Positions 17,601 through 46,864 of a DNA stretch of 55,989 nucleotides are shown piece after piece. The notes beneath the pieces were generated by a model. It did no database searches. It was not told where the DNA came from and saw nothing but the letters and a program-made list of their open reading frames with translations. Numbering within the stretch: position 1 is the first letter of the stretch; every line of letters begins with the position of its first letter. A program made the translations under genes and the position numbers. The stretch is from a virus (lineage: Duplodnaviria > Caudoviricetes), in the IMG/VR virus record IMGVR_UViG_3300022752_000086, positions 1-55,989 of that record. One strand, written 5' to 3'.

Positions 17601-17744
17601 ATAACCAAAAGGTCCTGTATTTCCTGTTGGGCCAGTGTTACCGGTATTTCCTTGTGGTCCTGGAGGCCCTTGCGGTCCACGTCCTCCTGCTCCACCTGGA
17701 ACATAAATTGTTTGTATTGTGCTATTACCAATATTACTGGGCAT
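2619..17744 (-). CDS. Giant 5041-aa virion fibre/adhesin-like protein (collagen-like, GACC Cys repeats, many RCC1/BLIP-II repeats, WD40-like segment)
   Basis: GPQGPPGPQGNTGNTGPTG near the N-terminus; GSCC/GACC repeats; repeated RCC1 units such as VSATGLHAAALRIDGKIVTWGSNSFNQL and LSAGDYHSGGIRPDGSLILWGDNRSNQC; WD-like LYSGHDNGIIRGWDFD. Lies in the tail operon. Confidence 0.75.
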   Translation of the reverse strand: MPSNIGNSTIQTIYVPGGAGGRGPQGPPGPQGNTGNTGPTGNTGPFGYSISSLSKSGSDKVIITLNDPDGTTLIIDGLTGNTGSAPTSYGSIANQYYEFRGTVPSSDLTQNFLLVQSVVGITTTFKVIEGVGITLSYQGNDFVIEAPNTAAVRSLQNKSLIGASGSSAISLSGFTYNTGITYDWIENTGITLFLQSLTDNINTSSSGITVQNTNISISQFYYDNTDKNWYSKNTFKFNDGVDTVIVNDSNLLFETEGAINYPYIPSMGSCCFCNTDASEINSTVCYDYITQQQCNQLSGSFKTISCSDRRNDLSCKSDIPENGACCTCGTNNDTGVSNSATCTQNLSREQCLALGFKYFALPAGADCSFVQATCDALDCGGSLTKKKIIKLASKTYPSEYSCGIMEDGNVLCWGEFIGSKIIQIRTPKTECTNPDNIEDWFADDIAIGENHILILAKPIAYQTCDQFIDNTPPLDPVTKIPILKKDKTKLYSKSFAKSVFENLIDRKANIWYGTLGTANPREKFIILSDFGRRYNLAIPTPNYDYFIGIKRSDRTLFGSGSPANYYKQYDFPLFPLPSGQFLDVSATGLHAAALRIDGKIVTWGSNSFNQLNTPQTNRKFVRVVTGRYHTCGLTDDGKVLCWGAGTTADSLNNWPNYGQSTVPESLNDKTVIQLECGYYFTAALTDTGDVYTWGSFRGVTLNNISGDSRISDFDDTIYGQIRKNLNRELVSKPLELNTVKTKLIACSPYSIAALGKNNKLYAWGHDGIIGITADTGTNLIKKGLPSAVERFNKQLNQQEINLSAVEIPFFAVDRNENIYLLLNSYGCAGTTYLDHIFNESLETEPGGVDTGNKKPSNSGLTGIALFHYNTNIDLSNYKKFYDYSQDKSLWNDGVNSGCFSCRVMNEVEFETIKNTIVGKRPFKRYSEFGGEPGYAMFITQGITGMQNPSEKPVCFKGGTFIANQIYETCKDPGRPGDSRPWCISPRTYHSTEPCDPEVDFNCALWLYGGYQTDETDPAYPFGITWDSDLETYKDILLLDDGTYGLPTAENPERLDDDGNPIKKPLSGCSNLYGCRKGASHYRSIIWKANNRTCINCISGDECDFVDLNLAYITRGSGFTGLTAQQFLGSNHCFYKETQQYVWQTEDNKTQLFPIFKNINPCADLDSDQNLTNDEDDLLGCSKQILKEQLILKFDQSTFTRVDEVASYPSIQSTVIENNVFCSNRPTKDPLWTSRQYAFDGLFNICEKTKNEIVEKYYEPRFIKQEITNLLTSGNMAYYTMKPDLFFMNDYSKLQNYTILTSTTASDKNYVLNKMYSGESGEILLINRNGGYLRTWNNSELIVINKDRYGNDVSPFACDPYTTLTNRDPAFSSDLYCGAWPNGILSRRILAATLGHRHGMYIVASDECLHDNGITFDTSPACSKGYIMAIPNGTGFTGLNGPVSDTKKQSEFWKAVIASKGPENPFFSIKNSNEPLFIDTISRNINRYQASSGFYHSCIIADEELTIGDISYNPGDVICWGVGIPKKPQTSFSFDQAKSITYSNENDYAIEVSCGHFHTLVLQNTNERKNLVAYGAGTLTQNDLNAKKYDFGQSIIPERVKQIEQYIKFIGSGPFYNGVIYSLAPNRYGYIGWGYGTSENSWIKTKQFSKKVVDFSLGDEHVVILFEDGTVDCLCDNNYNGVCDISTDPILQNKKFKHVYAKGNLTLAIDKDDSPYVFGDIKDNIESIPPELTNLERGRIIKKISAGKEHSLVLKGYVDDVLGVGDIIGFGNDPVLTEYPSPDIKWLKTGSASNTTIAVIDTPYKQLKIYGDGKNEPYINEKIYKTDLIGTTGISTKPIEWLLSHYGSLEDPTLKEYLQFIRREKLKDPNNTGYSCRDIAADGFRGIAIKTIPDIKWNNNDIGYFSRVVPWGFRYKTQPRNLNLLFEKVKLVVDPNNGDMFAIRVLPVEVLTNTLGTAVKIEKYYIKVGDDDSPFVKYDENWISYGYNQNETLGTRIENDIAYKNLYQYSAGIVLDGDLYEFTSFKEMSMGRWHTIGIINDPPIDGVASPIDYLPYVWGDPDIEENYGQIGLPLADDGIPLRFRSISANNYHNVGILYKGPYDIGRTIAGVEYEDYQVYCWGAEIYGSEISNTVNYGQTQPPLINGKPIKAKQVSAGLYHSMALTETGEAYAWGAGSEKDAIANAKQSNPHYGQSVIPTDELKKKYNFIYLSAGDYHSGGIRPDGSLILWGDNRSNQCNEVYSKTNKFTKINCANQYTIGLTEDGIVYGWGFGSSESLATVPIISPGQRNPGYSVLSAFPPRETIGVSNFNEHTNAKMDSDIGNIVGENNIVIAKDQETVLLPSSGSDAEIEQDTLDTWGDTTFSATEFFEEIFVADYRPIYYNFSYPINRELSIFLNYGSGYINRPNIKYDDAKIYQFIDGHGLNAGFDYQKYLNNQSDITKLTPYPLSRIDGITGIPLPIFADFGSAYKNKNYNRGIAVTHGPSDSEFDYPSYRPITTIVDETTGETTVTRRDPDKWSVNPLGFFKNTQRDGYYGIGPTQFFMIQESDVIDGATAFTFYCNTPRDHYKWHAIFKESILDGSLDPNELSFGIGQYKSNNRFPIDFKPGYKSQFGINWGFAKDDTTGQLIIKEYDWLDAYSFALGWNPNTNERVDYFDLHHNIWASDSNLKKSLPECSDCILLNDIKKGFTPLESISGRFGYNVYTLNMDASNHHASARGMIKVCGKLDIADPRVKPWVKILNSFNECGDPCNIDETDTNSRNSCKEYLIDTTALFGSMFYANTEASYPLEYTDHASEFSTLSDAIPTKYIWNDFTREVVVVEGGETKIVEINIENDGKALDFIDLRDIIPEQNQAVSDKGDQKLADGFFNRKGYLNRLHFPKWLKLKYFWKSDNLCDDDINCKGRPNPYIENKYIFRFRPDKNDSLWVCFNVYGNYNWGDNSQGQLGDIEKIEGRDLRKQTYKEKPWIPAFLNANISPEFVGTRTAPISCGMYHTVYDFSEVNKKSYKTFFNPYSNIQAIYAHTHNFISDPDRPDIFSSDNFYLPVQTIKYSPLKPIESGIYIQSIPCAYRIQGKTYLTAGENSENESTENIGGEGAKFIETSNSKFGHRVYAAGNKHNFASLISDANNYVAFTWGGAEFQGRGMTGIATIELPEDQIQDCANRLGLTADNNLRLFPNCCKDVFGGISYAYGDPNPQGRYLGGIELYDQNDHSAESWIRDQRRNQCLQDPCPCYNSCATDCDCQYCDSALEDCYNSEWYTKDNRVDGKWRPCSERRPECGEPGAQTLSFEDANINCRACLLNDYRHVNIEHVSTRADHNIILTRDPERDYPPDYNQYIEAQIYDGSNKVKLLSWEDNRGVTLFNGAVAAGLFPTVYGPLNTYFAKYQNFIVVGGQNEYGQVSLPPQNKANKSLDIKYQKYDDFVLKMEGVTASFCSVFGPGYGNGDLSQTSTSLDDYQLITASAGKYHNVYAGYFGLRQNKVPSNILLNVTVPLYYGNSATRNTSDGYNIPENIEQQRGTLKGFTYSLYDQNIVVWGATYAKQDELPEELIPQTTAKSIFDASFEAIFNTPFENKEIKNIDWSFDQKYLLISMNNLDSGEVVVLDANDMIQDKKITVIKSIKTSSPIIKAKWAFPSSRRLIIATSNTITTHRLTEKSKKVMKFILRLESINSETGQIISRITQNTQPIDLEALRYFNRIILTCKQYNTSVNIAFHFYAKEREQLKRFKYIVRLSRDTLFRENETLAELYNHPTNNSLRMEGNLFVVDENDNIIGIPSTIINDIDDGSVTISNTWNMDDIRLESDTPYETQSYSRTFSNTITDFICSKNGKCEIFVGFNTGDILEIDPSNPDNDLLLDSLQYTNVIGYNYPKSKVTVLESDHFGNLYSGHDNGIIRGWDFDNKLIWVSFAKASTKNTTIFDYNKEPIGSITSLSAAIPTTPSDLTSMDPPVLWSATRSVENSNLFNKKMKIRITELSELSNGQKQFEVFYEISDPVHIAWIENVWFKGFLDRYDYCESTGWDPIKNCDVYLLTDSEFIWNYWSSYFKYSIGGQTRFIKLFLELKPLIGALVDLKNQYRAQSSLPNKKLLFKFKAYNFLKISQPNVFGNYIPYCFNKNNETKYEYLFDNIDSFKQIRDDGLLGQTLTIDSGYLFGNFNNTYDTQFVSYEKEGIKEYYKNNTDVELLQLYEDSNILAQCGSCYRNINISRIGVISQNYSERIAFTRTGPGLFKWFITNIGIPDRHSSELYDSPYFNLEGKNYNSSDTNGLDISNINTRDKSKDDTEEIIKIQSAIKHPLSPSYDIKRNKMFYFTIGTDNDVRITSYDPSNNDNNPKWNLIYPGVRNLDGTPDRSKAIIDGTWNTEASHIALIHKDGTLKIIDPFNRFALVTPIDSISGTNIIKLQAGDEHTCLLYKDEIEQQNKILCWGNNSDNQCVWPKTAYEINKLFVNDTEIEEIWAGGYHNCISTNQNSYLSGVDRYMKTPLCWGRNTHGQTEIPNVNVIDMSLGREFTAWLDPQVRDTGCSSQVSDRGGIRIKGNLQQFVKDRATTSYSGDNRSGIIFGNAYKHLAAGTTHVVGFKYYNDECAGSTLTWTFAYDNFGIKYDCLDTPGWSEGVPTNIVDYINTLSTGTAVIRKEIEGMNPVYSFGDNTYQQSVPFYEFDTKQLRNSSKYLLNAYTDGRKWGWSYYSTASVDGEPNVDSFYGLSPNTSFRAGVINNYPLGINAGGYFNATVWRDTFEREIWHTYPYMPSSNVHDVLFGWGDNRYEQLSFQKKFATYNSLVANPMSEGPIITLGKSHIPVLTRTYDTNYQSILVLSDQRVIGLGATLEKQTDFAPVFTDATIGNGYALYLTDLGLVLPQISYNRQWIGPGIPQYLYDLSRGGQIGGCSINPYSSYIRSFRSIREVVAGVDQAMFITNEGKVFPVICLSGGAPSYFNDITSNQFSMNTVPAQWYNYSISTLGFGLYHISALSTKGKVYTYGVVPTYRFSGQYRQSVIPPSLEINSSIKYMNTGKYHTNAMSIRIAESGEIVRRLWSYGKSVSI

Positions 17745-29470: not shown

Positions 29471-29854
29471 TTATATTGGATCTAATGTTAGATTTATTGT
29501 TTTATTTATTTTGGGTTTTAATAATAGATTTAAATTAATTTCTATATTTAATATATTATTTGTATTTACTCTATTTACATTAACATTTACTATTTCTACT
29601 CGTGGCTCTACAGAATTTACACGATTTTTAATATTACTTTCTAAAATTTCTTTATCAATCTTTGTAAAATCTTCATACAAATAATCAACAACTCCAACTC
29701 CATAACTCTTAAATGGTACTTGACCTTCACTGGAAAATATTATATTTTTTACAGATTGAATTATATCATTTGCATCATTTTTAATATTAATCCAATTACC
29801 GTTTGGTTTTTCAATTATTCCTAAATTAAAGTCTATATCTCTATATGTGGTCAT
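29471..29854 (-). CDS. gp25: Baseplate wedge subunit gp25
   Basis: YRDIDF..IIQSVKNII..GQVPF..YG.G..DYLYE..VEPRVEI; 127 aa, immediately upstream of gp6. Confidence 0.9.
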   Translation of the reverse strand: MTTYRDIDFNLGIIEKPNGNWINIKNDANDIIQSVKNIIFSSEGQVPFKSYGVGVVDYLYEDFTKIDKEILESNIKNRVNSVEPRVEIVNVNVNRVNTNNILNIEINLNLLLKPKINKTINLTLDPI

Positions 29855-29863
29855 TTACTTCCC

Positions 29864-30931
29864 TTATGATGGATTATTACTATTTCCATCGTTCTGTTTG
29901 ATTATTCGCCTTCCGTAAGTACTGAGTGATGGTTTATTGTATTTATTAGTATTATAACCATCTCTTATTAAATAAAGAGCCATTGTATGTTTTCCGCCTA
30001 TTATTATTCGCTCAATTCTGGTTACCATCCAGGTTCCACCAAATCTTTTATCAGTTAGAGCACTTCCAGCTTCGCTTATTTCATCTTTAATTGGTATTCG
30101 TATATTAACAAGACTGCCTATTTTTATTAAATATGATCCATTTACAGTTATCTTTATTTTTTGAAAATTATATAAATTTACTAATGCATTTCTTAATAAT
30201 GGTGTTTTGGGGGGTGTGTTCCAAAAAGTTGCATTTGTTTTAGAGTATTCTAAATATGCACCAAATAAAGGACCATTTATATCAGTATTTGTTCCTGATG
30301 CATCTGTTTGTACTTTAAATTCTAATGGTTTTGGAGCATCGCCATCCCAAACAAAATTATCATTTGATGTTAGAACCCCATATGTTTTGTCTAATACTAA
30401 TACGGGACCACTATTTCCTCCGCCATAGTATCCCAAATTATATGGATAAAATGTATTTTTAGGTATACTTCCAGTTATTCCATAATATGTAATTTTTACG
30501 TCTTTAAAATATTTGGTATCATAACCACTACCAGCAGATACTAAATTTTTTCCAAAACAATTATATGGACATTTACTATTAGAAAAATCTACACCAAACC
30601 AAAAAGGTTGTTGATATTTTTCTACTAAATTATCGGTTATCAGCTTACATTCGCTTATAGATTTTTTTAGAGACACCAATTCTGCATCAGTTTTTGGAAG
30701 TTCTTTGGGTTTATATTGATTTATAAAACAGTTGCAAGCAGGATCCCAATCCGGACAATTTATATTAGATACTTGACCATACGGACTAAAACATACAGAC
30801 TCTATAGTATTAATTGAAGATTTTTGTAAATTAAATGATATATTGGTACTCGCAGAAGAACCACTAATACCATTAAAAATACCAGTCTCGTCTGGTCTAA
30901 AAACAGAAGTACTAGTTATAGTTATAGCCAT
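29864..30931 (-). CDS. Protein carrying the C-terminal part of the baseplate hub (gp27/GPD-like), 355 aa
   Basis: C-terminal KIKITVNGSYLIKIGSLVNIRIP..DKRFGGTWMVTRIERII..HTMALYLIRDG resembles the end of T4-like hub proteins; Cys-rich N-terminal third. Confidence 0.6.
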   Translation of the reverse strand: MAITITSTSVFRPDETGIFNGISGSSASTNISFNLQKSSINTIESVCFSPYGQVSNINCPDWDPACNCFINQYKPKELPKTDAELVSLKKSISECKLITDNLVEKYQQPFWFGVDFSNSKCPYNCFGKNLVSAGSGYDTKYFKDVKITYYGITGSIPKNTFYPYNLGYYGGGNSGPVLVLDKTYGVLTSNDNFVWDGDAPKPLEFKVQTDASGTNTDINGPLFGAYLEYSKTNATFWNTPPKTPLLRNALVNLYNFQKIKITVNGSYLIKIGSLVNIRIPIKDEISEAGSALTDKRFGGTWMVTRIERIIIGGKHTMALYLIRDGYNTNKYNKPSLSTYGRRIIKQNDGNSNNPS

Positions 30932-30936
30932 TACAA

Positions 30937-33900
30937 TTATTTATACCAAGAAACACGTCGTATATTTACATCATATTTTCTATCAGCCATTGCAAATCCT
31001 GGACCAAGAAAATGAAAATATGGTTGCCATCTACTGTAATCTACACTAAAAACCACACCAGAACCAAATGAACCACTTTGTAGATCTAAGAAATTTGGTA
31101 TATTTAATGATGCATAACAATTAAACCATATAGCATTATTCATGGCATAGAATGTTCCTGGATATGCTGGAGCTCCTGCTGGGGTCTTCCAACAGCTCGG
31201 ACCACATCCTCTGGGAGGCCATATTGTGGTTCCACTATTGTTATTTGCTCCTCGTACAGAAGTAGACCATTTTAAAGAACCAGGAGCAAGATCTAATTGT
31301 GAGGTTATACAATCATATTTTCTGTAATTCCAACCCAATCTATCCATAAATTTACCAATACCAGAACCACCCAATGTATATGAAGCATCTGTTATCTCCA
31401 ATCCTGGACATGTTTCTGGTGTACATCCTGGATCATTAATAAAGAAAGATCCAATATTATCTCTATTAACTCCAATAAACAATGGAAGATCCCAACGTCT
31501 GTGCCTCCATTCCTGGATATTTTTAGACCAATTGTATTGGGATGCGCACTGTGGAGTATTATAATCCCATGCCCACCAATAATCTGCCCATACTGGTGTT
31601 ATTTTATTTCTTAATCTTCTGGTATAATTCTCAGGATTAAATGGATCACCATGCCAATCTCTAAATGATAAAGTTAATTTATTTCCTTCTGTTGCTCTAA
31701 ACATTGCATTATATAGATTTCTATACTTGTTTTTTCTAACATTAATAGAGTATCTATCAGGCATTATAGCTTCCGTTACTGCAGACGGCGGTTCGTTTAA
31801 ATATTTGTCACCAAAACAGCAAAATTTTAATATTTGTTTCTTTTTATTTTGTGTTCGTGGAAAATGTACACCATTTCTTATATTTGGAATGGGTCTACAC
31901 GGATCTGCTACCGGTCCTCCTTCACCATTAGCATTTGTATAATTAGTTAAAATATCAGGATTGCCCCAAACTGTATAATTCCAAAGAGCCATACTAGACC
32001 ACATAGTTCCACTAACAGTGCCTGCATACGGTTGACCTGGCCAACATTGATCTCTTAACTGTGTTGTATATTCTGCTTGTTTAGGAAACCAATTACATAC
32101 ACCAGTAACCAGATCTCCTATGGAATCTCCGCCCAACTGATTAGTCCAATATCCATCAGTAGAATTAACAAATCCCGCTCCTAACCAACCTTGAGGATGT
32201 GATGCTTCAAAAGGTATATCTCCACCAACTCTGTCTTTATCTTCTTTTGATGTTAAAAATGTAGAATATCCTCTACTACTCAACCAATCCGACCAAAACC
32301 CTCTAACTCCTGTTCCAGATAGTTTAAATACTGGTCTGCATCCTCCGAATCGTTGTATCCATCTCCATATTGTTCCTGTATCTGGTCCTTTTCCTGAATA
32401 TAATCGTATAGGATCAATAATATCATTACCATCGGATCCAAGATGGTATGAATCAGAGCCTTTCTTACACTCGTATCCATTTCCCATCATGCTTTTTTCC
32501 CATATTGGCCATATAGAAGATATATCAGATAATCCTATTAAAGACTCTTGACCACCTAAATCTAATACAGGAGTTTCTCCTGATTCTAGATAAGTTACGG
32601 GATTTGTGCAATTAGCGTATTTAACCAGAGCCGTTCCTCTTGTTTCTTGGTCTCCTATTATTAATTTTGCCTTTTCTTCTGGAGACAATTCTGTTGGTTC
32701 GATAAAATATTTTCGAATTATATCTGGTTTATTCTCTAATTCCTCCCAAACATTAATATCGGTTAATCCTTGTCTACTATCGCATGCGCATTCATCATTA
32801 AATCTTCCCCATCGATATTCATAATTTTTATATGTTTGTGCTGGCTTAATAGTACTTGTATTATTTGGATACTGATTAAATGTACCAGTAACTTCCACTG
32901 TCACGTAAAGTCCATCATTTAAATGCGTTAAGCTTTGATTGTCAATGTTTACTCCCCTACCAAACATTATAGTTTCTCCGGGGGCTAATTCTATTGGAAA
33001 CATTAATCGTATTCGATTACGCTTTTTTCCACTACTAGATAAAAATCTATCAGATGCTAGTCCTAACCAAACTCCTCTAGAATTCAAATTTCCTATTTCT
33101 ATATCTGTTATAGAATTTCCAGTTAATTCTGGAATTATATTTTGAATAGCATTAGATAAATCTTGATTGTATAAATCAAATCCCCATGCAGCAATTTGCG
33201 CTCCAGTAAATGGAATTGCACACGAAGAACAACCAGTTTCTGTGTCACCACATAAAGGTTCTGGTTTTTTTAATCCATTTATTTTCCAATTTGTATAAGC
33301 TATATCTTTAGTACTAAAAAATACACCAGGTGGTGGAACAGTAAAACTTATCAGTGATTGATTTTGATTAACTCTAAATTCAAAATAATGACCAATTCCA
33401 CTAACACCACTTACATTTTTATTAAATGGATATTCAAAATCTATAGAATCTTTTATATATCTAGATTTATGAAATTCTGAAAGAGATCTTCCTGGCATAA
33501 AATTATATGCAAAAGATCCTGGATACCCATTATTAGCTATAGTCCTAAACATTGGATTATTTTTATTAAATATACTGAACAATTCAGTATCAACATATCC
33601 TTCCATGTTATATTTTGTACCTATATCACCACCGTGCGCGGGCACAACAACTAAAGGATAATCAATTTCTGTATAATTTGAAACTTGTGTTTCTTTTCCA
33701 GCAATATCTCTAAATGTCCAGGTATTTACTCTATTATCTTCTTCTAAAGAAGCCCAACGAGGAATAAAATATCGATTTAATGATGGCCAAGATTCTTCTA
33801 TTGGTGTTGATGGTTCACCAAAAGAATTTAATTTCATAAATTTATTATTATAATATTCACAATTATTATCATAATTTTTATGTGTATATTTTGTAAATCT

Positions 33901-36900
33901 AATTTCTTCAATAAAGGCTCCAGCGGGAGATAATATTATAAAATAAAATGGTTTACTTGGATCTAAAGGTTTTTGTTTTAATTCTTCATTTCTTACTTCT
34001 ATTGGAATAAAAGTCATAACTCTTTTCTTTATTTGAGTTACTTCTCCTACTTTCCAGCTTTCAGAGCTTACTGGTATTCCATCTCTATAAACTATTTCTT
34101 CTTGATATACTATTTTATTTTTTAATTGGGGTTTTATTTTTACAATTTCATCATCTTCTGCTTTTTCTGTCCTGTTTATTATAATTTCATCGGGTAAAAT
34201 ATTACCAAAAACTTTTGCAGCACAATTATATCCGTATACATCACGTATTGGTGGTGCAATACTATCACATTCCCACACACCATCACTATTAAAACCACAA
34301 CCAGCACATAATTCTGAATTATAATTATTTTCACAACCAGTACAACCTAAGCGACCTTTCCAGCCAGTAATAGCAGAACTGGGAGGAGAAATTCCTTTAA
34401 AACATGGATCACACCAATGTTGAATTACATTATTAGGTCCACCATAACAATATTTGTTTCTACAATAATACGATAGTTGTGAAGGAAATCTTCCTGGTGG
34501 TATTTCTATAATATTATGTGTAAAAGTATTAGGAGGAGCAAACCAATAATTAATTCTTGGTTTATTTGGTGCATTTTCCCATGTCCAATAATTTGTTGCA
34601 TTGTAATTATAATCATTAAAAGCTTTAGTCGCAGCACTTTCAAAATTTACCCAAGGCTGTTCGTGACCACCAGCAACGCCATTTCCATTTCCTACTAATT
34701 GATTAAATTCCATCCATGCATACGATTTATCGGTTCGTTTAATATCTAATCGATCATCAAATCCAATATCATTTAATATTACTCCTTGATGGCCGCCAAC
34801 TTTAAGACTATCTGTAGCATAATCAGACCAAACACAATCGCATGTAGCTCCTGTAAATGGTTTTAATCGTTGGTCACCTCGTGTACCAATTAATCTTACA
34901 GATATGCCGTCTGGCTGTTCTGTTGTTTTTGATGGATAAAACTTTAAATAATCTATTTGTTTATAATTTCCATCACTTTGTTTTTTAAATTTTCTTATTG
35001 TTACTTGTAAATCAAATAATAATCTGGAAGCAGTACCAGGATCAAATTCAGGATCGTGCCAATCATTTTTATTTAATGCACTTCCCATAATAATTCTGGG
35101 AGAATCTGCATATTCTCCAGTGTCTGCTCCTGGAGCAGACACTTGATGTTTCCATGAAATCTTCTTTCCTTTGTCTATTTCTCCAATATACGGATAATCA
35201 ACTCCACCAAGTTTTGATGGAGTTTGAATGATAATATTATGATCTGTACCACAAGATAATGCAGTTATTTCTGTATATCTACCACCATATGCTGCTAGTA
35301 TTCCTTGTAAACATTTTGTGCTAGTAGAATCACCACTAACTGTGTGGTATATTTCACTGGTTATTTTATTCACATTTGGTGGATATTTTGTTAAACTTAC
35401 AACAGTTCTATCTGGACCTAAAGCGCATTTAAAACTATATCCAGAAATTTTTCCTGGTTCTTTTATAGCGTAAATATCTAAACCAGCAAAATTTTTATTT
35501 ACAGAATTTGTGTAGTAATTGGGTTGAAAATATCTCATTCCTAAATTACTAATCTGTCCATTACTATCATCTCCCCAACCATCAAACATTAATCCACGAC
35601 CATTTCTACAGCATTCATAACCATTATGATAACAACACGGATAATCTCCATTACTATCTGGAATTATTGGACAATCTTCACCAATTCCTTGTGTTGTATC
35701 TGGTATCGGACTGCCTGTAGAATCCAAACAAGGACATGCTACTTCATATGGCATACATTTAGGAGGATCTCCATTCCAATCTCCTTCACCATTTTTATTC
35801 CAATTTTTACGTCTTGCTACAAATTCATTCAAGTACTTTTCACGAACAAATACTGTGTGATTTGCTATAGAAGAAGTGAATACTGGTATTGTATTCTCTA
35901 TGCCGCTGTCAGGATCATCATATGATACAGAAAATGCATCAAAATAATCTTTTGTTAGTAAATTTAATGGATATAGATTAGGTGTTTGTTCTTCTCCATC
36001 TACCAAAAGATTTCCCCAGTAATTTGGGCAGCATTGATTTACATAATCGGCTGATTTATTATACGGATCTCCAGGCATACCTAATCCCCAAGAAAAAATT
36101 CTAGTCTCTATTTGATCTGGAAACATTGCTTGGGGATTTACTCCATAGATTCGTTGTGCTACATCAGTTAAATCTGCTTTTGCTATTTTAAAGTAATTAC
36201 TAGAATAACCAACAATATGACGTTTACCTGCCCAGATATCAACATAAGTTAATTCTGTTGATATTGGATCATTCTGTGTACCAAATTCGTCTACTCCTTC
36301 TTCAAAGGCTAATACCGCATTATACAAAGCTGCTCTGGGTCCCCAGAAAGGTATAATTTCGTCTTTACGAATATTATATGTCGTTTCTCCTATCTCCAAA
36401 GAAGCATCTTTTATTGCTCGTCTAGGTTTTATACGTAAACGGGGTTCTGAACTGCCCCATAGTATTATTTTATTGTCTTCTTTCAACACAACACAAAAAT
36501 CACCACCAGCACATAATTTTTTTGAATTAGCTACAGATTTTTTTATTTCTTCTGGTAATTGTTTTAATGAAGAACTAACATTTCCCCATAGAGTTATTCC
36601 ATATTCGCCACCATAACCTATAGCTACAGTCCAATCGGGACCACATGATATTCGAGTTGTAATATCAAAATTTAACATCTCTGTTTCTGTTCTATTATCG
36701 GCAGTTAATCCCCAACAGATTGCTCTACCATGTTCATTGGTTGCACAATTATGATATTCTCCAGAACTTAAACTGGTGTAGTTATAGCCGCTGGGAGTGC
36801 TTGCCAATGACTCTTCGTTTTGTGTCAACCCCTTACATCCAATTTTATCACATTGTGATGTTCCAGCTGTATCATCACATTTTATTAATGACTTTTCTTC

Positions 36901-37680
36901 ATTAAAATATTGATTAAAAATATCAACTCCCCGATAACCTATAACATTTCCTGGATGTATAGCATTCCACCAACTAATCCAATACTTACCAGGATATGCT
37001 GTACTTGTATGAAGATTTTTATCGTGTGAAATTTCTCGTATATCAAAATTTCCAATCTCTGCTGAAGTTTTTGGAAAATAATTATATTTTTCTACTTGTT
37101 TACCAGGGAAAAGATCTGAAGGAATTGAAGACAATACCAATCCTTCAGATTTTGTAGGATTTTCATTACCATTTTGAAATGGCCTTCCTACACTGGGATA
37201 ATGTGTTATTAATTTATACCAAGGATTATCACATCTTGCTATATTAGTTTCTGCTGCAGCTATTTTTTCAGATAATGGCCATGTTGGTGCAGCCTCTAGA
37301 TCGTCTGGAGCATGTTCTATATAATCTCCATATGGATTTGGAATACTTCTAGGACTTTTACTAGAATATATCCAAATAGGATCTTTAACATCCCATTCGT
37401 ATGCAGGATCTGCTAAATCTCTATTGAATACACCAGATCCTCCATTTCGTATAATTTGTTCATAACTTATATGGCTCGGCGGAGATTTTGCTCCTTTAAA
37501 ATCTTTAAATATTTCACGAAACCATAACGGTTTCCCCCAAGTAGAATCAAAAGAAGTGTTTAATAAAGGAGTACCACAACCAGAAAGATATTCACGACCA
37601 CAAGGTTTTCTGGTTACTTCATACTTTTCTTCTGGTTTTTTTGTTGCAGGTCCACAGCAACATGATGAATTAGGTTTCAT
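30937..37680 (-). CDS. 2247-aa Cys/Trp-rich protein with RCC1-like repeats
   Basis: Starts MKPNSSCCCGP; LSSGEYHNCATNEHGRAICWG, ISCGPDWTVAI and LCAGGDFCVVLKEDNKIILWG repeats; many Cys clusters. Confidence 0.65.
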   Translation of the reverse strand: MKPNSSCCCGPATKKPEEKYEVTRKPCGREYLSGCGTPLLNTSFDSTWGKPLWFREIFKDFKGAKSPPSHISYEQIIRNGGSGVFNRDLADPAYEWDVKDPIWIYSSKSPRSIPNPYGDYIEHAPDDLEAAPTWPLSEKIAAAETNIARCDNPWYKLITHYPSVGRPFQNGNENPTKSEGLVLSSIPSDLFPGKQVEKYNYFPKTSAEIGNFDIREISHDKNLHTSTAYPGKYWISWWNAIHPGNVIGYRGVDIFNQYFNEEKSLIKCDDTAGTSQCDKIGCKGLTQNEESLASTPSGYNYTSLSSGEYHNCATNEHGRAICWGLTADNRTETEMLNFDITTRISCGPDWTVAIGYGGEYGITLWGNVSSSLKQLPEEIKKSVANSKKLCAGGDFCVVLKEDNKIILWGSSEPRLRIKPRRAIKDASLEIGETTYNIRKDEIIPFWGPRAALYNAVLAFEEGVDEFGTQNDPISTELTYVDIWAGKRHIVGYSSNYFKIAKADLTDVAQRIYGVNPQAMFPDQIETRIFSWGLGMPGDPYNKSADYVNQCCPNYWGNLLVDGEEQTPNLYPLNLLTKDYFDAFSVSYDDPDSGIENTIPVFTSSIANHTVFVREKYLNEFVARRKNWNKNGEGDWNGDPPKCMPYEVACPCLDSTGSPIPDTTQGIGEDCPIIPDSNGDYPCCYHNGYECCRNGRGLMFDGWGDDSNGQISNLGMRYFQPNYYTNSVNKNFAGLDIYAIKEPGKISGYSFKCALGPDRTVVSLTKYPPNVNKITSEIYHTVSGDSTSTKCLQGILAAYGGRYTEITALSCGTDHNIIIQTPSKLGGVDYPYIGEIDKGKKISWKHQVSAPGADTGEYADSPRIIMGSALNKNDWHDPEFDPGTASRLLFDLQVTIRKFKKQSDGNYKQIDYLKFYPSKTTEQPDGISVRLIGTRGDQRLKPFTGATCDCVWSDYATDSLKVGGHQGVILNDIGFDDRLDIKRTDKSYAWMEFNQLVGNGNGVAGGHEQPWVNFESAATKAFNDYNYNATNYWTWENAPNKPRINYWFAPPNTFTHNIIEIPPGRFPSQLSYYCRNKYCYGGPNNVIQHWCDPCFKGISPPSSAITGWKGRLGCTGCENNYNSELCAGCGFNSDGVWECDSIAPPIRDVYGYNCAAKVFGNILPDEIIINRTEKAEDDEIVKIKPQLKNKIVYQEEIVYRDGIPVSSESWKVGEVTQIKKRVMTFIPIEVRNEELKQKPLDPSKPFYFIILSPAGAFIEEIRFTKYTHKNYDNNCEYYNNKFMKLNSFGEPSTPIEESWPSLNRYFIPRWASLEEDNRVNTWTFRDIAGKETQVSNYTEIDYPLVVVPAHGGDIGTKYNMEGYVDTELFSIFNKNNPMFRTIANNGYPGSFAYNFMPGRSLSEFHKSRYIKDSIDFEYPFNKNVSGVSGIGHYFEFRVNQNQSLISFTVPPPGVFFSTKDIAYTNWKINGLKKPEPLCGDTETGCSSCAIPFTGAQIAAWGFDLYNQDLSNAIQNIIPELTGNSITDIEIGNLNSRGVWLGLASDRFLSSSGKKRNRIRLMFPIELAPGETIMFGRGVNIDNQSLTHLNDGLYVTVEVTGTFNQYPNNTSTIKPAQTYKNYEYRWGRFNDECACDSRQGLTDINVWEELENKPDIIRKYFIEPTELSPEEKAKLIIGDQETRGTALVKYANCTNPVTYLESGETPVLDLGGQESLIGLSDISSIWPIWEKSMMGNGYECKKGSDSYHLGSDGNDIIDPIRLYSGKGPDTGTIWRWIQRFGGCRPVFKLSGTGVRGFWSDWLSSRGYSTFLTSKEDKDRVGGDIPFEASHPQGWLGAGFVNSTDGYWTNQLGGDSIGDLVTGVCNWFPKQAEYTTQLRDQCWPGQPYAGTVSGTMWSSMALWNYTVWGNPDILTNYTNANGEGGPVADPCRPIPNIRNGVHFPRTQNKKKQILKFCCFGDKYLNEPPSAVTEAIMPDRYSINVRKNKYRNLYNAMFRATEGNKLTLSFRDWHGDPFNPENYTRRLRNKITPVWADYWWAWDYNTPQCASQYNWSKNIQEWRHRRWDLPLFIGVNRDNIGSFFINDPGCTPETCPGLEITDASYTLGGSGIGKFMDRLGWNYRKYDCITSQLDLAPGSLKWSTSVRGANNNSGTTIWPPRGCGPSCWKTPAGAPAYPGTFYAMNNAIWFNCYASLNIPNFLDLQSGSFGSGVVFSVDYSRWQPYFHFLGPGFAMADRKYDVNIRRVSWYK
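30938..30945 (-). promoter_or_regulatory. T4-type late promoter TATAAATA
   Basis: Exact consensus overlapping the last codons (TAT AAA TAA) of the 2247-aa ORF, 6 nt before the ATG at 30931. Confidence 0.6.
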
Positions 37681-37690
37681 AATATATTTT

Positions 37691-37698
37691 TATTTATA
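37691..37698 (-). promoter_or_regulatory. T4-type late promoter TATAAATA
   Basis: Exact consensus overlapping the stop of the 870-aa ORF, 10 nt before the ATG at 37680. Confidence 0.6.
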
Positions 37699-40306
37699 CT
37701 GAACACGTATTATCACACAAACCGTCATGAGCATTAACAACATCAAACACAAACAAATATTTAGCCTTTTCTGATTCAGATTTTGTTTCTTTACTAAGAG
37801 TTATTGTAGTTTCTGATGAACCCAACATAGGAGTAACTGTAATAGATGCTCCACCAGAACCAGCAGAACAAATACCAGTTAATCCTTGTTCTCCCTTTGC
37901 TATGGTTTGCATTATTTCTCTAGGTATAGCATGCATTTGTACTATTCTACCAAATGGCCATTTTTGAGAATCGGAGCATTCATTTGCAAATCTAAAAGTT
38001 CCAATAGGCATCATTTCAAATCCTTTAGGATATGAAGTTTTACATGTAGTTTTGGTATCGTCTATTGGGAATGCTAATCCTGGATTGGTGATAAAGAATT
38101 TGCAATCTTTAAGATTTGTTTTAACTGATGTTGGAATTTTAGACGTATCGAATCCTTTAGGAAATGTTAAACCAACACAATTTAATATTTCATTTATATT
38201 ATATGCCCTGGTATCCTTTGTGAGATATGTTTGTCCCGCTTTAGATTCTGAACCTTTTATATCATATTTCTTTATTTTATTTTCGTATTTTCTTGTTAAT
38301 GGAATTGTTCCTTCTAGGGCTCCTTTAGGTTTCACAAAAACAAATGGATACGATTCTTGATTTTCAAATTTAATAATCTCGTCTCCGGTTTTTAATATAG
38401 CATCCACATCTTCTCGTGGCCAGAATTCTACTTCTACCCATTTATACGCATAGATTCCTCCTGGATCTGCCTGAAATGATGTACCAGATAATCCACCATA
38501 AATTTTATCAGCACCAGTAAGAAGAGCAAAGAAATTTAATGGAACTTTACGTTCACAGCAAATATTATCAAAATAAAATTTCCATTTTTCATTTAATTTT
38601 TTAGCTTCTACATATTTTTGTCTATTTTCTTCTAATGGCCATTTTATTTTATTATAAATTACATGTAAAGCAGTTCCAGGTAATTCACAGAAATCAAATT
38701 GAGATTGCCAATATTCTTCTTCTAATCTATTAAGTTTATTAAAATTATATGTTAATCCCTGTTGATCTCCATTATAATCAATTGTTCCTACAGATTTGTA
38801 TGTAAATCCTTTATTATTCTTATCTAAAAAAGACCACCAAGGAGAATATTTTGAATTGTATTGAGCTGAATCATAAAACCCATATATCTCATCAGAAATT
38901 CTAAAAGCCATAGAATTAAAATCACTTTTAATACTAGTAATATTTAATTCTGAAGAACTGAACGGAGAGTATCCACGATTATCCAATGGCCATCGTTTAT
39001 TAGTAATAATAACATCATTAATACGTTTAATAGGACTACTGCGTTCGAGTATATCTTCTTTGTAAGAATATTTTATTAATTCTTTAGAATATTGTTCTTC
39101 TCCACTTAATATGTTTCTATACGGACTTTTCCAGTTTGGTTTAACTCTAATATATTCAGATACTAGTGCTCCACTTGCAATTAAATCCATAGGTTCTGTA
39201 TCTTTAATAACATCTAAAGAAATAATAGCTTCCATGTTCTGTGGATTAGAATCGGGGAAAAATAACGGAGTATCTCCTGAACTTTCTTGAACCATTTTAG
39301 CTATAGATTTAAAATTAAAACCATCAAGATCCTCCCAAAACATAAAATCAACAAAGTTTGGATCTTCTTTTAAACATGCATAATTTTTTACATAATGTAT
39401 TAATTGAGTAAGTCTTGGAATTGATGAATTTTTAAATGATGGATAGAAAAAATATTCAGGCTTTATCCAAATATCATTAGAGGTTGCATGTGATTTAAAT
39501 CCTTTAGGTGGTCTATTACTAAATGTTGATTTTCTTTCTTGATTATATCTTGTAATAAGGTTGCCAAAAAATGTTGGATTTTCTGCTGGCCATGTATTGC
39601 TTTCTTGAGGTAAAGTCATTACAATATTTCCATATTGATCTTTATCTTTTTCTACTTTTGTTTTAATTTTGATCTGATCATCTATTTTATCTGTTTTAAT
39701 AGTAGATGTTGTTTTACCATCATAACCAATAGTATAATTATATTCTGCTGATATAGGTCCTATAAAATTATCAAAAGTTTTTAATACTCTATCATAATTT
39801 ATACTGTGGCCAACAAAGTCAGAGTGAACAAATTCTTTACTAGAAAATCTAATATTAAGATAATTAGGAGTACCAACATCTCTATTTACGTCTTGACTAG
39901 CAATATCATTAATAGTTTCAATATCAACAATATTAAAAAATAATTTTTTTTTGTTTACTTTATAATTAAAATTGTTATCAATTGTATCACCAAAAGAAAT
40001 ATCCATTTCTATTTCTGCATTAGTTCTTATACCAAGATTATCAAATATATTACTTTTATCAACTAAAATTAAAGAACCACTAACATGAGGTTCTTCCATA
40101 TCTTCCACAAACGACAAAGAATATACACCAAGTGGATCTATGCTTTTAGCTTCTTTGATTAAATTTATTTCTAAACTTTGTTGTTCTGCTATGCCTTGAG
40201 CAAATTCTCCAGAAGAATTAGCTAACATTCCTGTAGATGCATTCCTAATAATTAAATCATTTATTATAACATTAGGATATTGAACTTGTTTTAATGAAGA
40301 TAGCAT
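37694..40306 (-). CDS. Baseplate hub (gp27-like) N-terminal part fused to an unrelated Cys-containing C-terminal domain, 870 aa
   Basis: FVEDMEEPHVSGSLILVDKSNIFD and FMFWEDLDGFNFKSI motifs; directly after gp53. Ends in CCER..FFALLTGA..YAYKWVEV..YPKGFEMMPIG..NAHDGLC instead of the usual hub C-terminus. Confidence 0.65.
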   Translation of the reverse strand: MLSSLKQVQYPNVIINDLIIRNASTGMLANSSGEFAQGIAEQQSLEINLIKEAKSIDPLGVYSLSFVEDMEEPHVSGSLILVDKSNIFDNLGIRTNAEIEMDISFGDTIDNNFNYKVNKKKLFFNIVDIETINDIASQDVNRDVGTPNYLNIRFSSKEFVHSDFVGHSINYDRVLKTFDNFIGPISAEYNYTIGYDGKTTSTIKTDKIDDQIKIKTKVEKDKDQYGNIVMTLPQESNTWPAENPTFFGNLITRYNQERKSTFSNRPPKGFKSHATSNDIWIKPEYFFYPSFKNSSIPRLTQLIHYVKNYACLKEDPNFVDFMFWEDLDGFNFKSIAKMVQESSGDTPLFFPDSNPQNMEAIISLDVIKDTEPMDLIASGALVSEYIRVKPNWKSPYRNILSGEEQYSKELIKYSYKEDILERSSPIKRINDVIITNKRWPLDNRGYSPFSSSELNITSIKSDFNSMAFRISDEIYGFYDSAQYNSKYSPWWSFLDKNNKGFTYKSVGTIDYNGDQQGLTYNFNKLNRLEEEYWQSQFDFCELPGTALHVIYNKIKWPLEENRQKYVEAKKLNEKWKFYFDNICCERKVPLNFFALLTGADKIYGGLSGTSFQADPGGIYAYKWVEVEFWPREDVDAILKTGDEIIKFENQESYPFVFVKPKGALEGTIPLTRKYENKIKKYDIKGSESKAGQTYLTKDTRAYNINEILNCVGLTFPKGFDTSKIPTSVKTNLKDCKFFITNPGLAFPIDDTKTTCKTSYPKGFEMMPIGTFRFANECSDSQKWPFGRIVQMHAIPREIMQTIAKGEQGLTGICSAGSGGASITVTPMLGSSETTITLSKETKSESEKAKYLFVFDVVNAHDGLCDNTCSV

Positions 40307-40311
40307 TGTTA

Positions 40312-42225
40312 TTAAATATTAAAATCACTTAATTTGTAACTAGTTACATTTCCTGATTGTAGATCTTCCGATATACGACTATCTATTTTTTGTAGTATTA
40401 CAGTATTTACATATAACATATTTTGCTTTAATTGATACGAATAATCTCTATATTTTTTATTCAATGTCATAAAACGTGAATCGTTTTCCGCATTTGAAAA
40501 ATTATTAATAAACACAGTTTTCCAAATATCTTTAGTTATTGGAATAATTTCATAATTTATTTGTATTTCTACTGTAGTATTCTTTATATCTTGTATTCCC
40601 ACTAAACAATTTTTTATTTGTTTAATTTCTTGCCCGTTTCGTAAAATAGTTACCACAGTTCCTGTGGGATCATCTATTATTAGGTCAGTGTTAGACAACA
40701 CTCCACCATAATATTTACAAATTAATCGTTTAAATCCATCATCTATTTCTTCTACTTTTCCTATAAATTTTTGGTATGTTCCTGTCAATCCCCGTAATAC
40801 TATATGGTGATCTCCTGAATAAATTCTATCGTAAGATCCATACGTGGTATAATTGCTTAATGTATAACCACTGGATGTGATACCGGCAACATTTGCTCCA
40901 GTAAATCCTGCCCTAGGAATTTTACCCCAACAAAACAATTCGTCATTAACTGTTAATGCTGCAGAATGACGTTTTCCTGCTGCTATTGCTTTATATTTTT
41001 TATCGGGTACTATTGTTTGACCATCTGCTGTAAGTCCCCAAGCGTAAACAGTACCGTCTGATTTTCTGGCAAGAGCGTGTCTATGTGTGGCAGATACTTC
41101 TACAAATCCGGTTCCACTAGGTACTTCTAATTGACCATATGCATTCTCACCCCATGCAATTAAACGACCATTCTTACTAATTATACCAACACAAAATTGA
41201 CTTCCACATGAAACATCGTCATATGTTATTCCAGTATTGGCTAAAGTACCACAATCCACTAGTGTTTTATCACTTTTTAGTATCACTCCACCAGGAGAAC
41301 CAGAATCACTAACATGATACCATGATGTCTTAATACCAACAGTGGAACCTGCTGCAGCATATAATGCTGGTTCTGTAGTATAATTTCCGTAAAATTCTAA
41401 TCTAGAATCACTGTTTATTGCTACTAATTTTTGTTGACTTGCCTCTATAAATTTATATAATGTTCTAACCGATTTTATATAATTTGGAGTAATAGTAGTA
41501 AAATCTGTACATGCAGGACAATTAAATAACACCAATGTGTCTTCTCTGCCCCAGCAATGTATTTGGCCATATTTATCTAACACACAGGTAAAATCTTTAC
41601 CTGCTGTTAATTGGGTGCTGTCTTTTTGAAAATCAAATTCTAATGGTACTATACTCTGTCCATAATGGGCGTAGTCGTCCATTTCTCCAGTTCTATTTAA
41701 TCCTTGAGCTACTGAAGATTCTGGTATAATTCCTGCACCAATACATTTTATTCCATATGGTCCTAATCCAGTTTCAAAAATAACAGTATCTCCTATCTGT
41801 ATACCAGATAAATCTACTCCATCATAAGAATCTATAACAGAATCTGAGTATAAAGTTTGTAATACTCCATTATATGTTATTCCTGATTCTTCTTTGGTTG
41901 GTAAAAATGGGGAAGTATTACCAAATTGTAATACTCGTGCATCAAAAGTGTCTAGATCTTTATTTGTTATTTGTTGTCCTAATATTTTGTTCCAATTAAA
42001 TGGATTTTTTATATTATTTAATAACATTAAAATCCAATAGTAATCAAATGAATTGTATAGTCTATACGATAATTGTTCTGGTCTTTCTCCAGGATTTATC
42101 TGTTCTGTTTTAATAAATTCTAAACTATCCACATCAATATTTACATCTTTAAATAGATTAGTTACTGTTTTAATACCCCCAGTAGCTCCAAAATCATAAC
42201 TTAATGTTGGGAAATATTTAAACAT
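40312..42225 (-). CDS. gp53: Baseplate wedge subunit gp53 with inserted RCC1-repeat domain, 637 aa
   Basis: MFKYFPTLSYDF..GERPEQLSYRLYNSFDYYWILMLLNNIKNP (gp53 LysM-like), then RCC1 repeats such as VSATHRHALARKSDGTVYAWGLTADGQTIVP. Confidence 0.85.
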   Translation of the reverse strand: MFKYFPTLSYDFGATGGIKTVTNLFKDVNIDVDSLEFIKTEQINPGERPEQLSYRLYNSFDYYWILMLLNNIKNPFNWNKILGQQITNKDLDTFDARVLQFGNTSPFLPTKEESGITYNGVLQTLYSDSVIDSYDGVDLSGIQIGDTVIFETGLGPYGIKCIGAGIIPESSVAQGLNRTGEMDDYAHYGQSIVPLEFDFQKDSTQLTAGKDFTCVLDKYGQIHCWGREDTLVLFNCPACTDFTTITPNYIKSVRTLYKFIEASQQKLVAINSDSRLEFYGNYTTEPALYAAAGSTVGIKTSWYHVSDSGSPGGVILKSDKTLVDCGTLANTGITYDDVSCGSQFCVGIISKNGRLIAWGENAYGQLEVPSGTGFVEVSATHRHALARKSDGTVYAWGLTADGQTIVPDKKYKAIAAGKRHSAALTVNDELFCWGKIPRAGFTGANVAGITSSGYTLSNYTTYGSYDRIYSGDHHIVLRGLTGTYQKFIGKVEEIDDGFKRLICKYYGGVLSNTDLIIDDPTGTVVTILRNGQEIKQIKNCLVGIQDIKNTTVEIQINYEIIPITKDIWKTVFINNFSNAENDSRFMTLNKKYRDYSYQLKQNMLYVNTVILQKIDSRISEDLQSGNVTSYKLSDFNI

Positions 42226-45994: not shown

Positions 45995-46864
45995 TTAGTC
46001 TTCAAGTGACTTTAGATATGATTCTACATCGACATCCTCATCTGGTTCTGCCTTTGGCAGAGGCTTACGACTAGAACGCACTACAGGCTCATCCTCAACA
46101 GTATCCTCAGAATCGCCCATATTGCGAACATCTCCACCTAGAGCATCAACCAGCTTGGTCTTAAGCTCAGGATAGCTCTTGAACTCCTTGGGATTAATAA
46201 ACTCCTTGAGAGCGTACTGCTTCTTCCAAAGAGCCTCAAGCTTGGCATCATCACCATCAAACAGTTCAGTGGCAGCACTAAACTCTGACTTGTCGTAGTT
46301 AACGTAACCGTCAACCTTACGGACCTTGAGTTTAAAATTAGCACCCTTCCAGAAGTCAAACGGATTAACAGCACTTTCGTCTTGGAATTCTGGATTCATC
46401 TGCTCTTGAATCTTCTCAAAAATCTTCTTGCCGTACTTAAATAGGAACACCTTGCCCTTGTTTTGAGGAGCTGCTGGATCCTCCACAACAAGAATATTGG
46501 AAATATAATTAAGCTTACGCTTGCGATCACGAGCAATACGCTTATCGCTTTCAGTACCAGAATTCCATAATTCAGAGTTTCCTTCACAAACTGGGCACTT
46601 CTCACCAAGGGTTGTGGGACAATTGTGAATAAACCAACCACCCTTACCCTTAAAGGCGTGAGAGTACAACTTAACCCATGGAATATCCTCTCCTTCCACT
46701 GCAGGAAGAAATCGAATAACTGCATATCCATTACTAGCAGAGTCCAGAGTAGGTCGCCAAAATCGGTCGTCCTTATAATCATTAGACTTGTTGCTCTTCT
46801 CCAACTCCTCTTGAAGCTTGGATGCCATTGACGTAGAATTCTTCTTTAGATCTTTAAATGCCAT
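45995..46864 (-). CDS. gp32: Single-stranded DNA-binding protein gp32
   Basis: DDRFWRP..NGYAVIRFLP..HAFKG.GGWFIHNCPTTLGEKCPVCE..NPFDFWKGANFKLK..NYDKSEF, acidic tail; AGGAG Shine-Dalgarno. Confidence 0.97.
   Translation of the reverse strand: MAFKDLKKNSTSMASKLQEELEKSNKSNDYKDDRFWRPTLDSASNGYAVIRFLPAVEGEDIPWVKLYSHAFKGKGGWFIHNCPTTLGEKCPVCEGNSELWNSGTESDKRIARDRKRKLNYISNILVVEDPAAPQNKGKVFLFKYGKKIFEKIQEQMNPEFQDESAVNPFDFWKGANFKLKVRKVDGYVNYDKSEFSAATELFDGDDAKLEALWKKQYALKEFINPKEFKSYPELKTKLVDALGGDVRNMGDSEDTVEDEPVVRSSRKPLPKAEPDEDVDVESYLKSLED

Follow-up and report, generated by a model that had tools for sequence, protein, structure and literature searches.

A gp27-type baseplate hub subunit probably encoded by two genes in uncultured T4-like phages

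The IMG/VR record IMGVR_UViG_3300022752_000086, a stretch of 55,989 bp that we call the window hereafter, belongs to a T4-like myovirus (estimated completeness 25%, G+C ~31%), and our subject is the central hub of its baseplate. In the baseplate operon of the window the hub subunit appears as two open reading frames (ORFs), not as one polypeptide: H870 (870 aa) and C355 (355 aa), which are 6762 nt apart and enclose the gene of a giant protein, R2247. We consider it probable, at roughly 75%, that one gp27-type central baseplate hub subunit is built from two polypeptides, H870 and C355. Their features, where P0112 is a single-chain relative of 445 aa, are the following:

37694..40306, minus strand: H870 (P0001), putative first hub chain, 870 aa; ORF with a phrog_350 match and full-length homologs
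38951..40267, minus strand: H870 residues 14-452, predicted N-terminal ~two thirds of the gp27-type hub fold, from the alignment to P0112 residues 8-302
38456..38761, minus strand: H870 residues ~516-617, module WQSQFDFCELPG...ICCERK, common to the long single-chain forms
37697..38455, minus strand: H870 residues 618-870, C-terminal domain limited to the split clade, conserved in 28 of 28 aligned rows
29864..30931, minus strand: C355 (P0003), putative second hub chain, 355 aa; ORF matching phrog_350 positions 349-434
30557..30799, minus strand: C355 residues 45-125, Cys-rich motif, found upstream of the hub C-domain in single-chain forms
29924..30202, minus strand: C355 residues 244-336, predicted C-terminal part of the gp27-type hub fold, from the alignment to P0112 residues 345-437

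Complementary coverage of a single-chain hub

The two ORFs were compared with phrog_350, a "tail protein" family of 436 positions. H870 covers positions 35-101 and 175-277 of this profile and C355 the segment given above, and the profile is matched over its length solely by H870 and C355 taken together; in the relative G001, two genes cover positions 35-342 and 338-432. The protein gp029 of Pelagibacter phage HTVC008M (YP_007517895, 445 aa) is a full-length member of the family (positions 8-433, E 8e-91) and Syn33_016 of cyanophage Syn33 is another; the gene of the former lies directly after gp53, and the hub gene of the window is likewise directly downstream of gp53. We then used hhalign to compare three family alignments, namely the single-chain family (A5, 39 of the 61 homologs of HTVC008M gp029), the H870 family (A3, 28 sequences) and the C355 family (A2, 30 sequences). 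The single-chain family matches the H870 family with a probability of 97.6% (E 4.4e-12), P0112 residues 8-302 being aligned to H870 residues 14-452, and the C355 family with a probability of 97.1% (E 4.9e-11), P0112 residues 345-437 being aligned to C355 residues 244-336. The coverage of the single-chain hub by H870 and C355 is therefore collinear and non-overlapping.

Proteins that hold both parts in one chain also exist. An exhaustive HMMER search with C355 found 99 other representative proteins at E<=0.001, 20 of which are single-chain proteins of 1445-2118 aa (P0023-P0097). In all 20 the order is the same: a part corresponding to H870 (~57-590), an insert of 791-1412 aa, the Cys motif of C355 and, at the C-terminal end, the hub domain of C355. 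With phmmer the matches of these long proteins extend to H870 residues ~584-617, and in the two that were tested against phrog_350 the N-terminal end matches positions 25-332 and 36-317. In the locus L034 the fused single-chain ORF adjoins gp25 and gp6.

An earlier reading, made from the sequence only, had placed hub N-terminal motifs in the 870-aa ORF and the usual hub C-terminus at the end of the 355-aa ORF. In the translations, SGSLILVD, FWEDLDGFNFKS, CCER, FFALLTGA, YKWVEV and NAHDGLC are all present in H870, while ITVNG, IGSLVNIRIP, RFGGTWMVTRIER and LIRDG lie close to the end of C355, and the hub similarity of both proteins, including that of the C355 C-terminus, is now statistically supported. 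The view that the two ORFs are complementary halves of a hub is borne out by their coverage of phrog_350 and of the single-chain family, and relatives with an unsplit gene, for which it had advised a search, do exist, among them the 20 long proteins.

Concerning the remaining parts of the two chains, neither the hub C-domain nor gp27 resembles H870 residues 600-870 at the profile level (E 0.39-0.71, hence E>0.3 throughout), and therefore H870 is not a whole hub at this level, as that reading had also supposed. The idea that H870 carries a hub C-domain of its own in its YLFVFDVVNAHDG end was rejected on the same profiles. Its C-terminal domain (residues 618-870) has no match to the hub C-domain, gp27, the inserts of the long forms or Pfam, and the N-terminal 204 residues of C355 have no similarity to the hub C-domain, the single-chain family or gp27 (E 0.39-0.91). 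As separate observations, the H870 homolog of locus L012 (L012:3026-5290) consists of two pieces, 398 aa and 113 aa long; its contig is in other respects like L011 and L032, and the homolog is a broken copy or an assembly error; moreover, seven proteins of 416-483 aa (P0080, P0081, P0090, P0092 and P0099-P0101) end in the same hub C-domain with no match to H870 or to the N-terminal part of phrog_350, and could be either hubs that have diverged strongly or some other protein that reuses the hub C-domain.

Fold of the family and its relation to gp27

The AlphaFold2 model of P0112 is confident, with a predicted local distance difference test (pLDDT) of 85 and a predicted template modelling score of 0.85. 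Its best matches in the PDB are chains of T4 gp27 (2Z6B, 9MKB, 1K28 and 1WTH) and a Klebsiella phage hub, with E-values from 3.5e-19 to 2e-17 and a template modelling (TM) score by target of 0.74-0.76 over ~440 columns, followed by the hubs of contractile injection systems, P1, diffocin, Mu, pyocin and VgrG. The model is least confident within residues ~303-344, the stretch between the parts matched by H870 and by C355, where two blocks (residues 321-340) have pLDDT 63 and 52. For the model of H870, T4 gp27 is the only match at E<=0.001 (E 8.8e-4); the match is partial, with a TM score by target of 0.38.

At the sequence level, the C355 family aligns with six gp27 sequences over gp27 residues 307-371 (hhalign probability 72.6%, E 3.2e-5), and the alignment of the single-chain family with gp27 is collinear over 302 columns (E 6.2e-4, probability 28%). 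Single-sequence comparisons with T4 gp27 by hhalign were not significant, and the result improved once the six-sequence gp27 alignment was used. The ESM Atlas returned sub-threshold leads (Phage_GPD 0.84 and 0.86; YqbQ 0.83 and 0.86), which we did not use as evidence. The families phrog_350 and phrog_1135, the latter being that of T4 gp27, were mutually exclusive in all five genomes tested. On the predicted structure, the phrog_350 proteins of marine T4-like phages adopt the gp27 fold, and the family would then likely be the equivalent of gp27, a protein that was detected in neither Syn33 nor HTVC008M.

Conservation of the split and the giant gene between the halves

A scan of IMG/VR with P0003 alone found nothing, and the scan with the H870 alignment gave 31 loci. 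Thirty IMG/VR loci have an H870 homolog (29-53% identity), near-duplicates among them being L011/L012/L032, L005/L006, L022/L033 and L014/L015; a C355 homolog follows downstream in 29, and the thirtieth contig ends inside the gene. The hub halves are adjacent in 28 of the 29 loci, with apparent gaps of -71 to +23 nt, and the giant gene stands between them only in L004. Clearly, the present-day split does not depend on the giant gene, and the two-gene hub lineage is old and widespread. The sequence-only reading was right that the arrangement is conserved and not broken, given that the halves are kept together in 29 related loci; its proposal that a captured module had split the hub gene is not supported as it stood, in view of the 28 loci where the halves adjoin each other with no giant gene. 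Nor did the extra domain of the first half (CCER...NAHDGLC), which it took for part of the same module, arrive with the giant gene, since every one of the 28 aligned split-clade members has this domain.

Two phylogenies bear on the age of the split. The tree of the shared N-terminal part, with the minimal forms as its root, was built from 15 split forms, 20 long forms and 12 of the 39 minimal ones (47 rows, with 11 of the 30 loci represented). All split forms fall into a single clade in it (Shimodaira-Hasegawa-like approximate likelihood ratio test, SH-aLRT, 100), nested among paraphyletic long forms, which indicates one fission in an insert-bearing ancestor. The first fork within this clade parts the window, L004 and P0006-P0008 from ten rows lacking the giant gene. 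In the tree of C355 (28 rows, with L006, L012, L027, L032 and L033 left out), the window, L004 and L039 are grouped (92/68) as sister to 24 loci that lack it, and the giant gene has been seen in this one subclade only. The inserts of the 20 long forms are mutually homologous, with a BLAST match for all 380 ordered pairs. They have no match to the hidden Markov model (HMM) of the R2247 family at E<=1, nor by hhalign (E 0.96), and they are unrelated to the C-terminal domain of H870 too.

The giant gene itself is described by two features:

30937..37680, minus strand: R2247 (P0002), 2247-aa Cys-rich protein between the hub genes; ORF with four homologs
36397..36864, minus strand: RCC1-like repeats of R2247, residues ~273-428, from Pfam and PDB profiles

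That a whole Cys-rich gene starting with MKPNSSCCC lies between the halves holds true, the protein having 60 Cys (2.67%). Its description as a 2247-aa RCC1 protein stands as to the RCC1-like character and fails as to the extent, which is only residues ~273-428 of 2247: Pfam RCC1_2 is matched by one repeat at 27.7 bits (cut-off 22), WD40_RLD reaches 32 bits, below its cut-off of 150, and PDB profile matches to UVR8, HERC1 and RPGR (E down to 2e-21) span just positions ~302-428. Beyond this segment there was no family match. The four homologs have 2185-2329 aa (48, 39, 38 and 36% identity); a homolog of 2329 aa lies between the hub genes in L004, another homolog precedes the C355 homolog and then gp25 in the metagenome contig L039, and three further ones are known as proteins with no genomic context. 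In its G+C (~0.29-0.37) R2247 resembles other large structural genes of the window. RCC1-like segments also occur in a gp53-like protein and in a 5041-aa ORF of the window, so that the domain is common in structural genes and not obviously foreign. From its position and from the late-promoter-like motif in front of it, R2247 is most likely a late-expressed virion protein of the baseplate or tail tip.

The two junctions are marked by the same motif:

37691..37698, minus strand: TATAAATA, late-promoter-like, overlapping the TAA stop of H870, 10 nt before the ATG of R2247
30938..30945, minus strand: TATAAATA, late-promoter-like, overlapping the TAA stop of R2247, 6 nt before the ATG of C355

An exact TATAAATA over each preceding stop, with gaps of 13 nt between H870 and R2247 and 5 nt between R2247 and C355, had been described before and was found again here. 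This motif, which we take to be the T4 late promoter consensus read by the gp55/gp33-modified polymerase, is depleted about threefold in the window (7 copies vs 19.75 expected from shuffles), and five of the seven copies are followed, 14-23 nt downstream, by the start of an ORF of their own strand, these ORFs being R2247, C355, gp4 and two plus-strand ORFs. Inside the minus-strand operon it is limited to R2247 and C355. The placement of TATAAATA is non-random and the motif is not a chance feature. Its copies are concentrated just upstream of ORF starts, with 6-15 nt to the ATG; if they are promoters, this spacing means that the leaders are very short or absent. In L004, CATAAATA occurs at the position matching the H870/R2247 junction motif of the window. 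Of 29 loci, 10 have the form NATAAATA at a distance of 13-16 nt before the C355 homolog, and it is also present in L039; it precedes the homologs of both R2247 and C355 in L004 and that of C355 in L039, and it was not found ahead of the H870 or gp25 homologs. From their sequence and placement, TATAAATA and NATAAATA may act as promoters. A sigma-70 promoter scan was uninformative (59 promoter-like sites vs 79 expected), and no terminator was found at the junctions.

Concerning the surroundings, the minus-strand operon comprises, in order, an unassigned 300-aa ORF, a gp53-like/RCC1 fusion, H870, R2247, C355, gp25, gp6 and further wedge and fibre-like genes; gp4, gp48-like and gp54-like genes lie on the plus strand, divergent from the baseplate operon. 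The immediate neighbours of the hub genes are:

40312..42225, minus strand: gp53-like wedge protein fused to an RCC1-like propeller, 637 aa, upstream neighbour of H870
29471..29854, minus strand: gp25-like wedge subunit, downstream neighbour of C355

The propeller of the gp53-like protein matches Pfam RCC1_2 with E 8.5e-27. In L029 (1172-9401) and L030 (1769-9887) the region matching the gp53-like/RCC1 gene is enlarged to two ORFs of ~1350 and ~1390 aa. Downstream in the same operon as the hub genes is the 5041-aa ORF (101 Cys; 2619-17744, minus strand), with three short RCC1-like stretches whose BLAST matches to R2247 are weak; the ORFs of 864 aa and 942 aa that flank it are also Cys-rich (4.05% and 3.61%). 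A gene for a gp32-type single-stranded DNA-binding protein (45995-46864, minus strand; phrog_224, E 6e-111) lies between structural gene blocks. Neither megablast with the region nor tblastn with P0001, P0003, P0100 and P0029 found a match in the "phages" collection; gp6 alone gave distant matches, of ~26% identity, to Kyanoviridae (HTVC008M and cyanophages), which are the closest named phages.

Competing explanations, known systems and significance

We propose the following history. The phrog_350 hub of a large uncultured group of T4-like phages carries an insertion of 0.8-1.4 thousand residues in the loop matching residues ~303-344 of the 445-aa form, and in one descendant lineage the gene would have undergone fission inside that insertion. 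H870 retains hub residues ~8-302 together with an extra C-terminal domain, and C355 retains the Cys-rich motif and hub residues ~345-437, with its own late-promoter-like NATAAATA, both genes remaining between gp53 and gp25. In the subclade of the window, a Cys-rich gene of 2.2 thousand codons with a short RCC1-like segment, preceded by TATAAATA, lies between the halves. From their complementary matches to a single-chain fold we infer that the two chains come together as one fold in the virion.

Several results weigh against a two-chain gp27-type hub. Modelled on its own, H870 gives a poor structure (pLDDT 56.9), neither H870 nor C355 has a Pfam match, and HMMER profiles of H870, C355 and the single-chain family gave no usable match to PDB sequences. 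At the sequence level the window's own proteins show a moderate to weak similarity to gp27, the H870 family resembling it weakly (E 0.0097, probability 4%, gp27 residues 163-207). Both copies of TATAAATA are unusually near the start codons of R2247 and C355 (10 and 6 nt). No match to gp5 (phrog_430, Syn33 gp5) or PAAR was found in the window (25% complete), G001 (153,850 bp, 85%) or G002 (146,037 bp, 80%), while the HTVC008M positive control was found; the usual gp27-gp5 context is thus unconfirmed, although these records are incomplete. The search with Gp5_OB had no match in any genome searched and is thus uninformative. Finally, some proteins of 416-530 aa end in the C-domain with no detectable H870-like N-terminal part, and consequently the C-domain may occur in other contexts too. 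This last result, together with the fact that the C-domain of C355 also matches other "tail protein" families (phrog_24827 and phrog_1390), is what could be said for placing C355 outside the hub ring, as an independent baseplate or tail protein sharing a hub-like C-terminal domain, with H870 as a truncated hub working alone. We judge this very improbable, because H870 and C355 cover the single-chain hub collinearly and with no overlap, both parts occur in that order in the 20 long proteins, the halves are strictly adjacent in 28 of 29 loci, and gp27 residues 307-371, matched by C355, fall within the fold matched by the single-chain model.

Other readings concern the origin of the split. A giant-gene cassette might have been inserted into a single-chain hub gene and caused the fission; recombination between the two flanking NATAAATA copies, for example, might later have removed the giant gene cleanly from the sister subclade. 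The deepest fork of the split clade does part a giant-bearing from a giant-less group, the same 8-nt motif is present at both junctions, and the identity tiers of the R2247 homologs parallel those of H870 (54, 53, 40, 39 and 35%), which suggests a long vertical co-descent. As one insertion plus one loss, this course would be as parsimonious on the trees as fission first and the giant gene later, the number of events being equal. We nevertheless regard it as rather unlikely: the split works with no giant gene in 28 of 29 loci, neither subclade has the ancestral insert and all split members have a different C-terminal domain, so that the fission came with other rearrangements; furthermore, the C355 tree supports the giant-bearing clade moderately (92/68), and P0006-P0008 and P0109-P0111 are known without genomic context. 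R2247 could also be thought to be the internal insert of the long hubs, freed as a gene of its own by two fissions, as it occupies exactly the position of that insert and the split clade descends from insert-bearing forms. This is hardly credible and was rejected, in view of the lack of any link by HMM or hhalign between R2247 and the 20 inserts, homologous as these are among themselves, and of the length of R2247, greater than that of any insert. In function, the C-terminal domain of H870 and the Cys-rich N-terminal part of C355, with R2247 in the subclade of the window, might form a new tail tip on the gp27-type hub that replaces the gp5 spike-lysozyme, the fission allowing a separately made giant protein to be clamped between the hub chains. 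The failure to detect gp5, Gp5_OB and PAAR in the window and its two relatives leaves room for this proposal, which we hold to be unlikely.

Contractile injection machines have the gp27/gpD/VgrG hub as their most conserved core, and as a rule this hub is a single chain. T4 gp27 (1K28, 2Z6B, 9MKB), which belongs to the wider gp27 / Mu gp44 / P2 gpD / VgrG hub fold, is the best structural match of the single-chain member, and its gene too lies among baseplate genes; the hub proposed here differs from it in consisting of two polypeptides with extra domains at the break (H870 618-870 and C355 1-215), in a marginal sequence similarity, in that no gp5 partner was detected in the genomes searched, and in its gene neighbours, which are 53 and 25 here and 51 and 28 in T4. 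HTVC008M gp029, whose gene also follows gp53, and Syn33_016 (T4-like gene cluster 15) belong to the same phrog_350 family, but they are single chains of ~445-460 aa with no insertion, and both phages encode a recognisable gp5. The long single-chain hubs (P0023-P0097; L034) share the N-terminal part, the Cys motif, the C-domain and their order with the two-gene form and are the nearest outgroups of the split clade; they differ in being one polypeptide and in their conserved insert of 791-1412 aa, absent from H870, C355 and R2247.

A central baseplate component made as two proteins is known in other phages of the T4 superfamily. It is reported that gp5 is split in Sinorhizobium phage PhiM9 and Rhizobium phage P10VF (PMC4621102); there, the protein concerned is gp5 (OB domain and beta-helix) and not a gp27-type hub, and no giant gene lies between the two parts (PMC4621102). 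The pelagimyophage paper, in the part available, reports strong gp5 divergence and does not mention gp27 (PMC7029224). Full-text literature searches returned no account of a gp27-type hub divided between two genes; the nearest precedent that they gave is the split gp5 of PhiM9.

One loop of the phrog_350 family tolerates insertions of the order of a thousand residues, and one branch of the two-gene hub lineage has a giant, probably late gene at the junction. If the two-chain reading is correct, the lineage would offer a natural test case of the limits to cutting and decorating the hub fold, and it would point to this hub loop as an attachment site for host-interaction modules in abundant uncultured aquatic phages.

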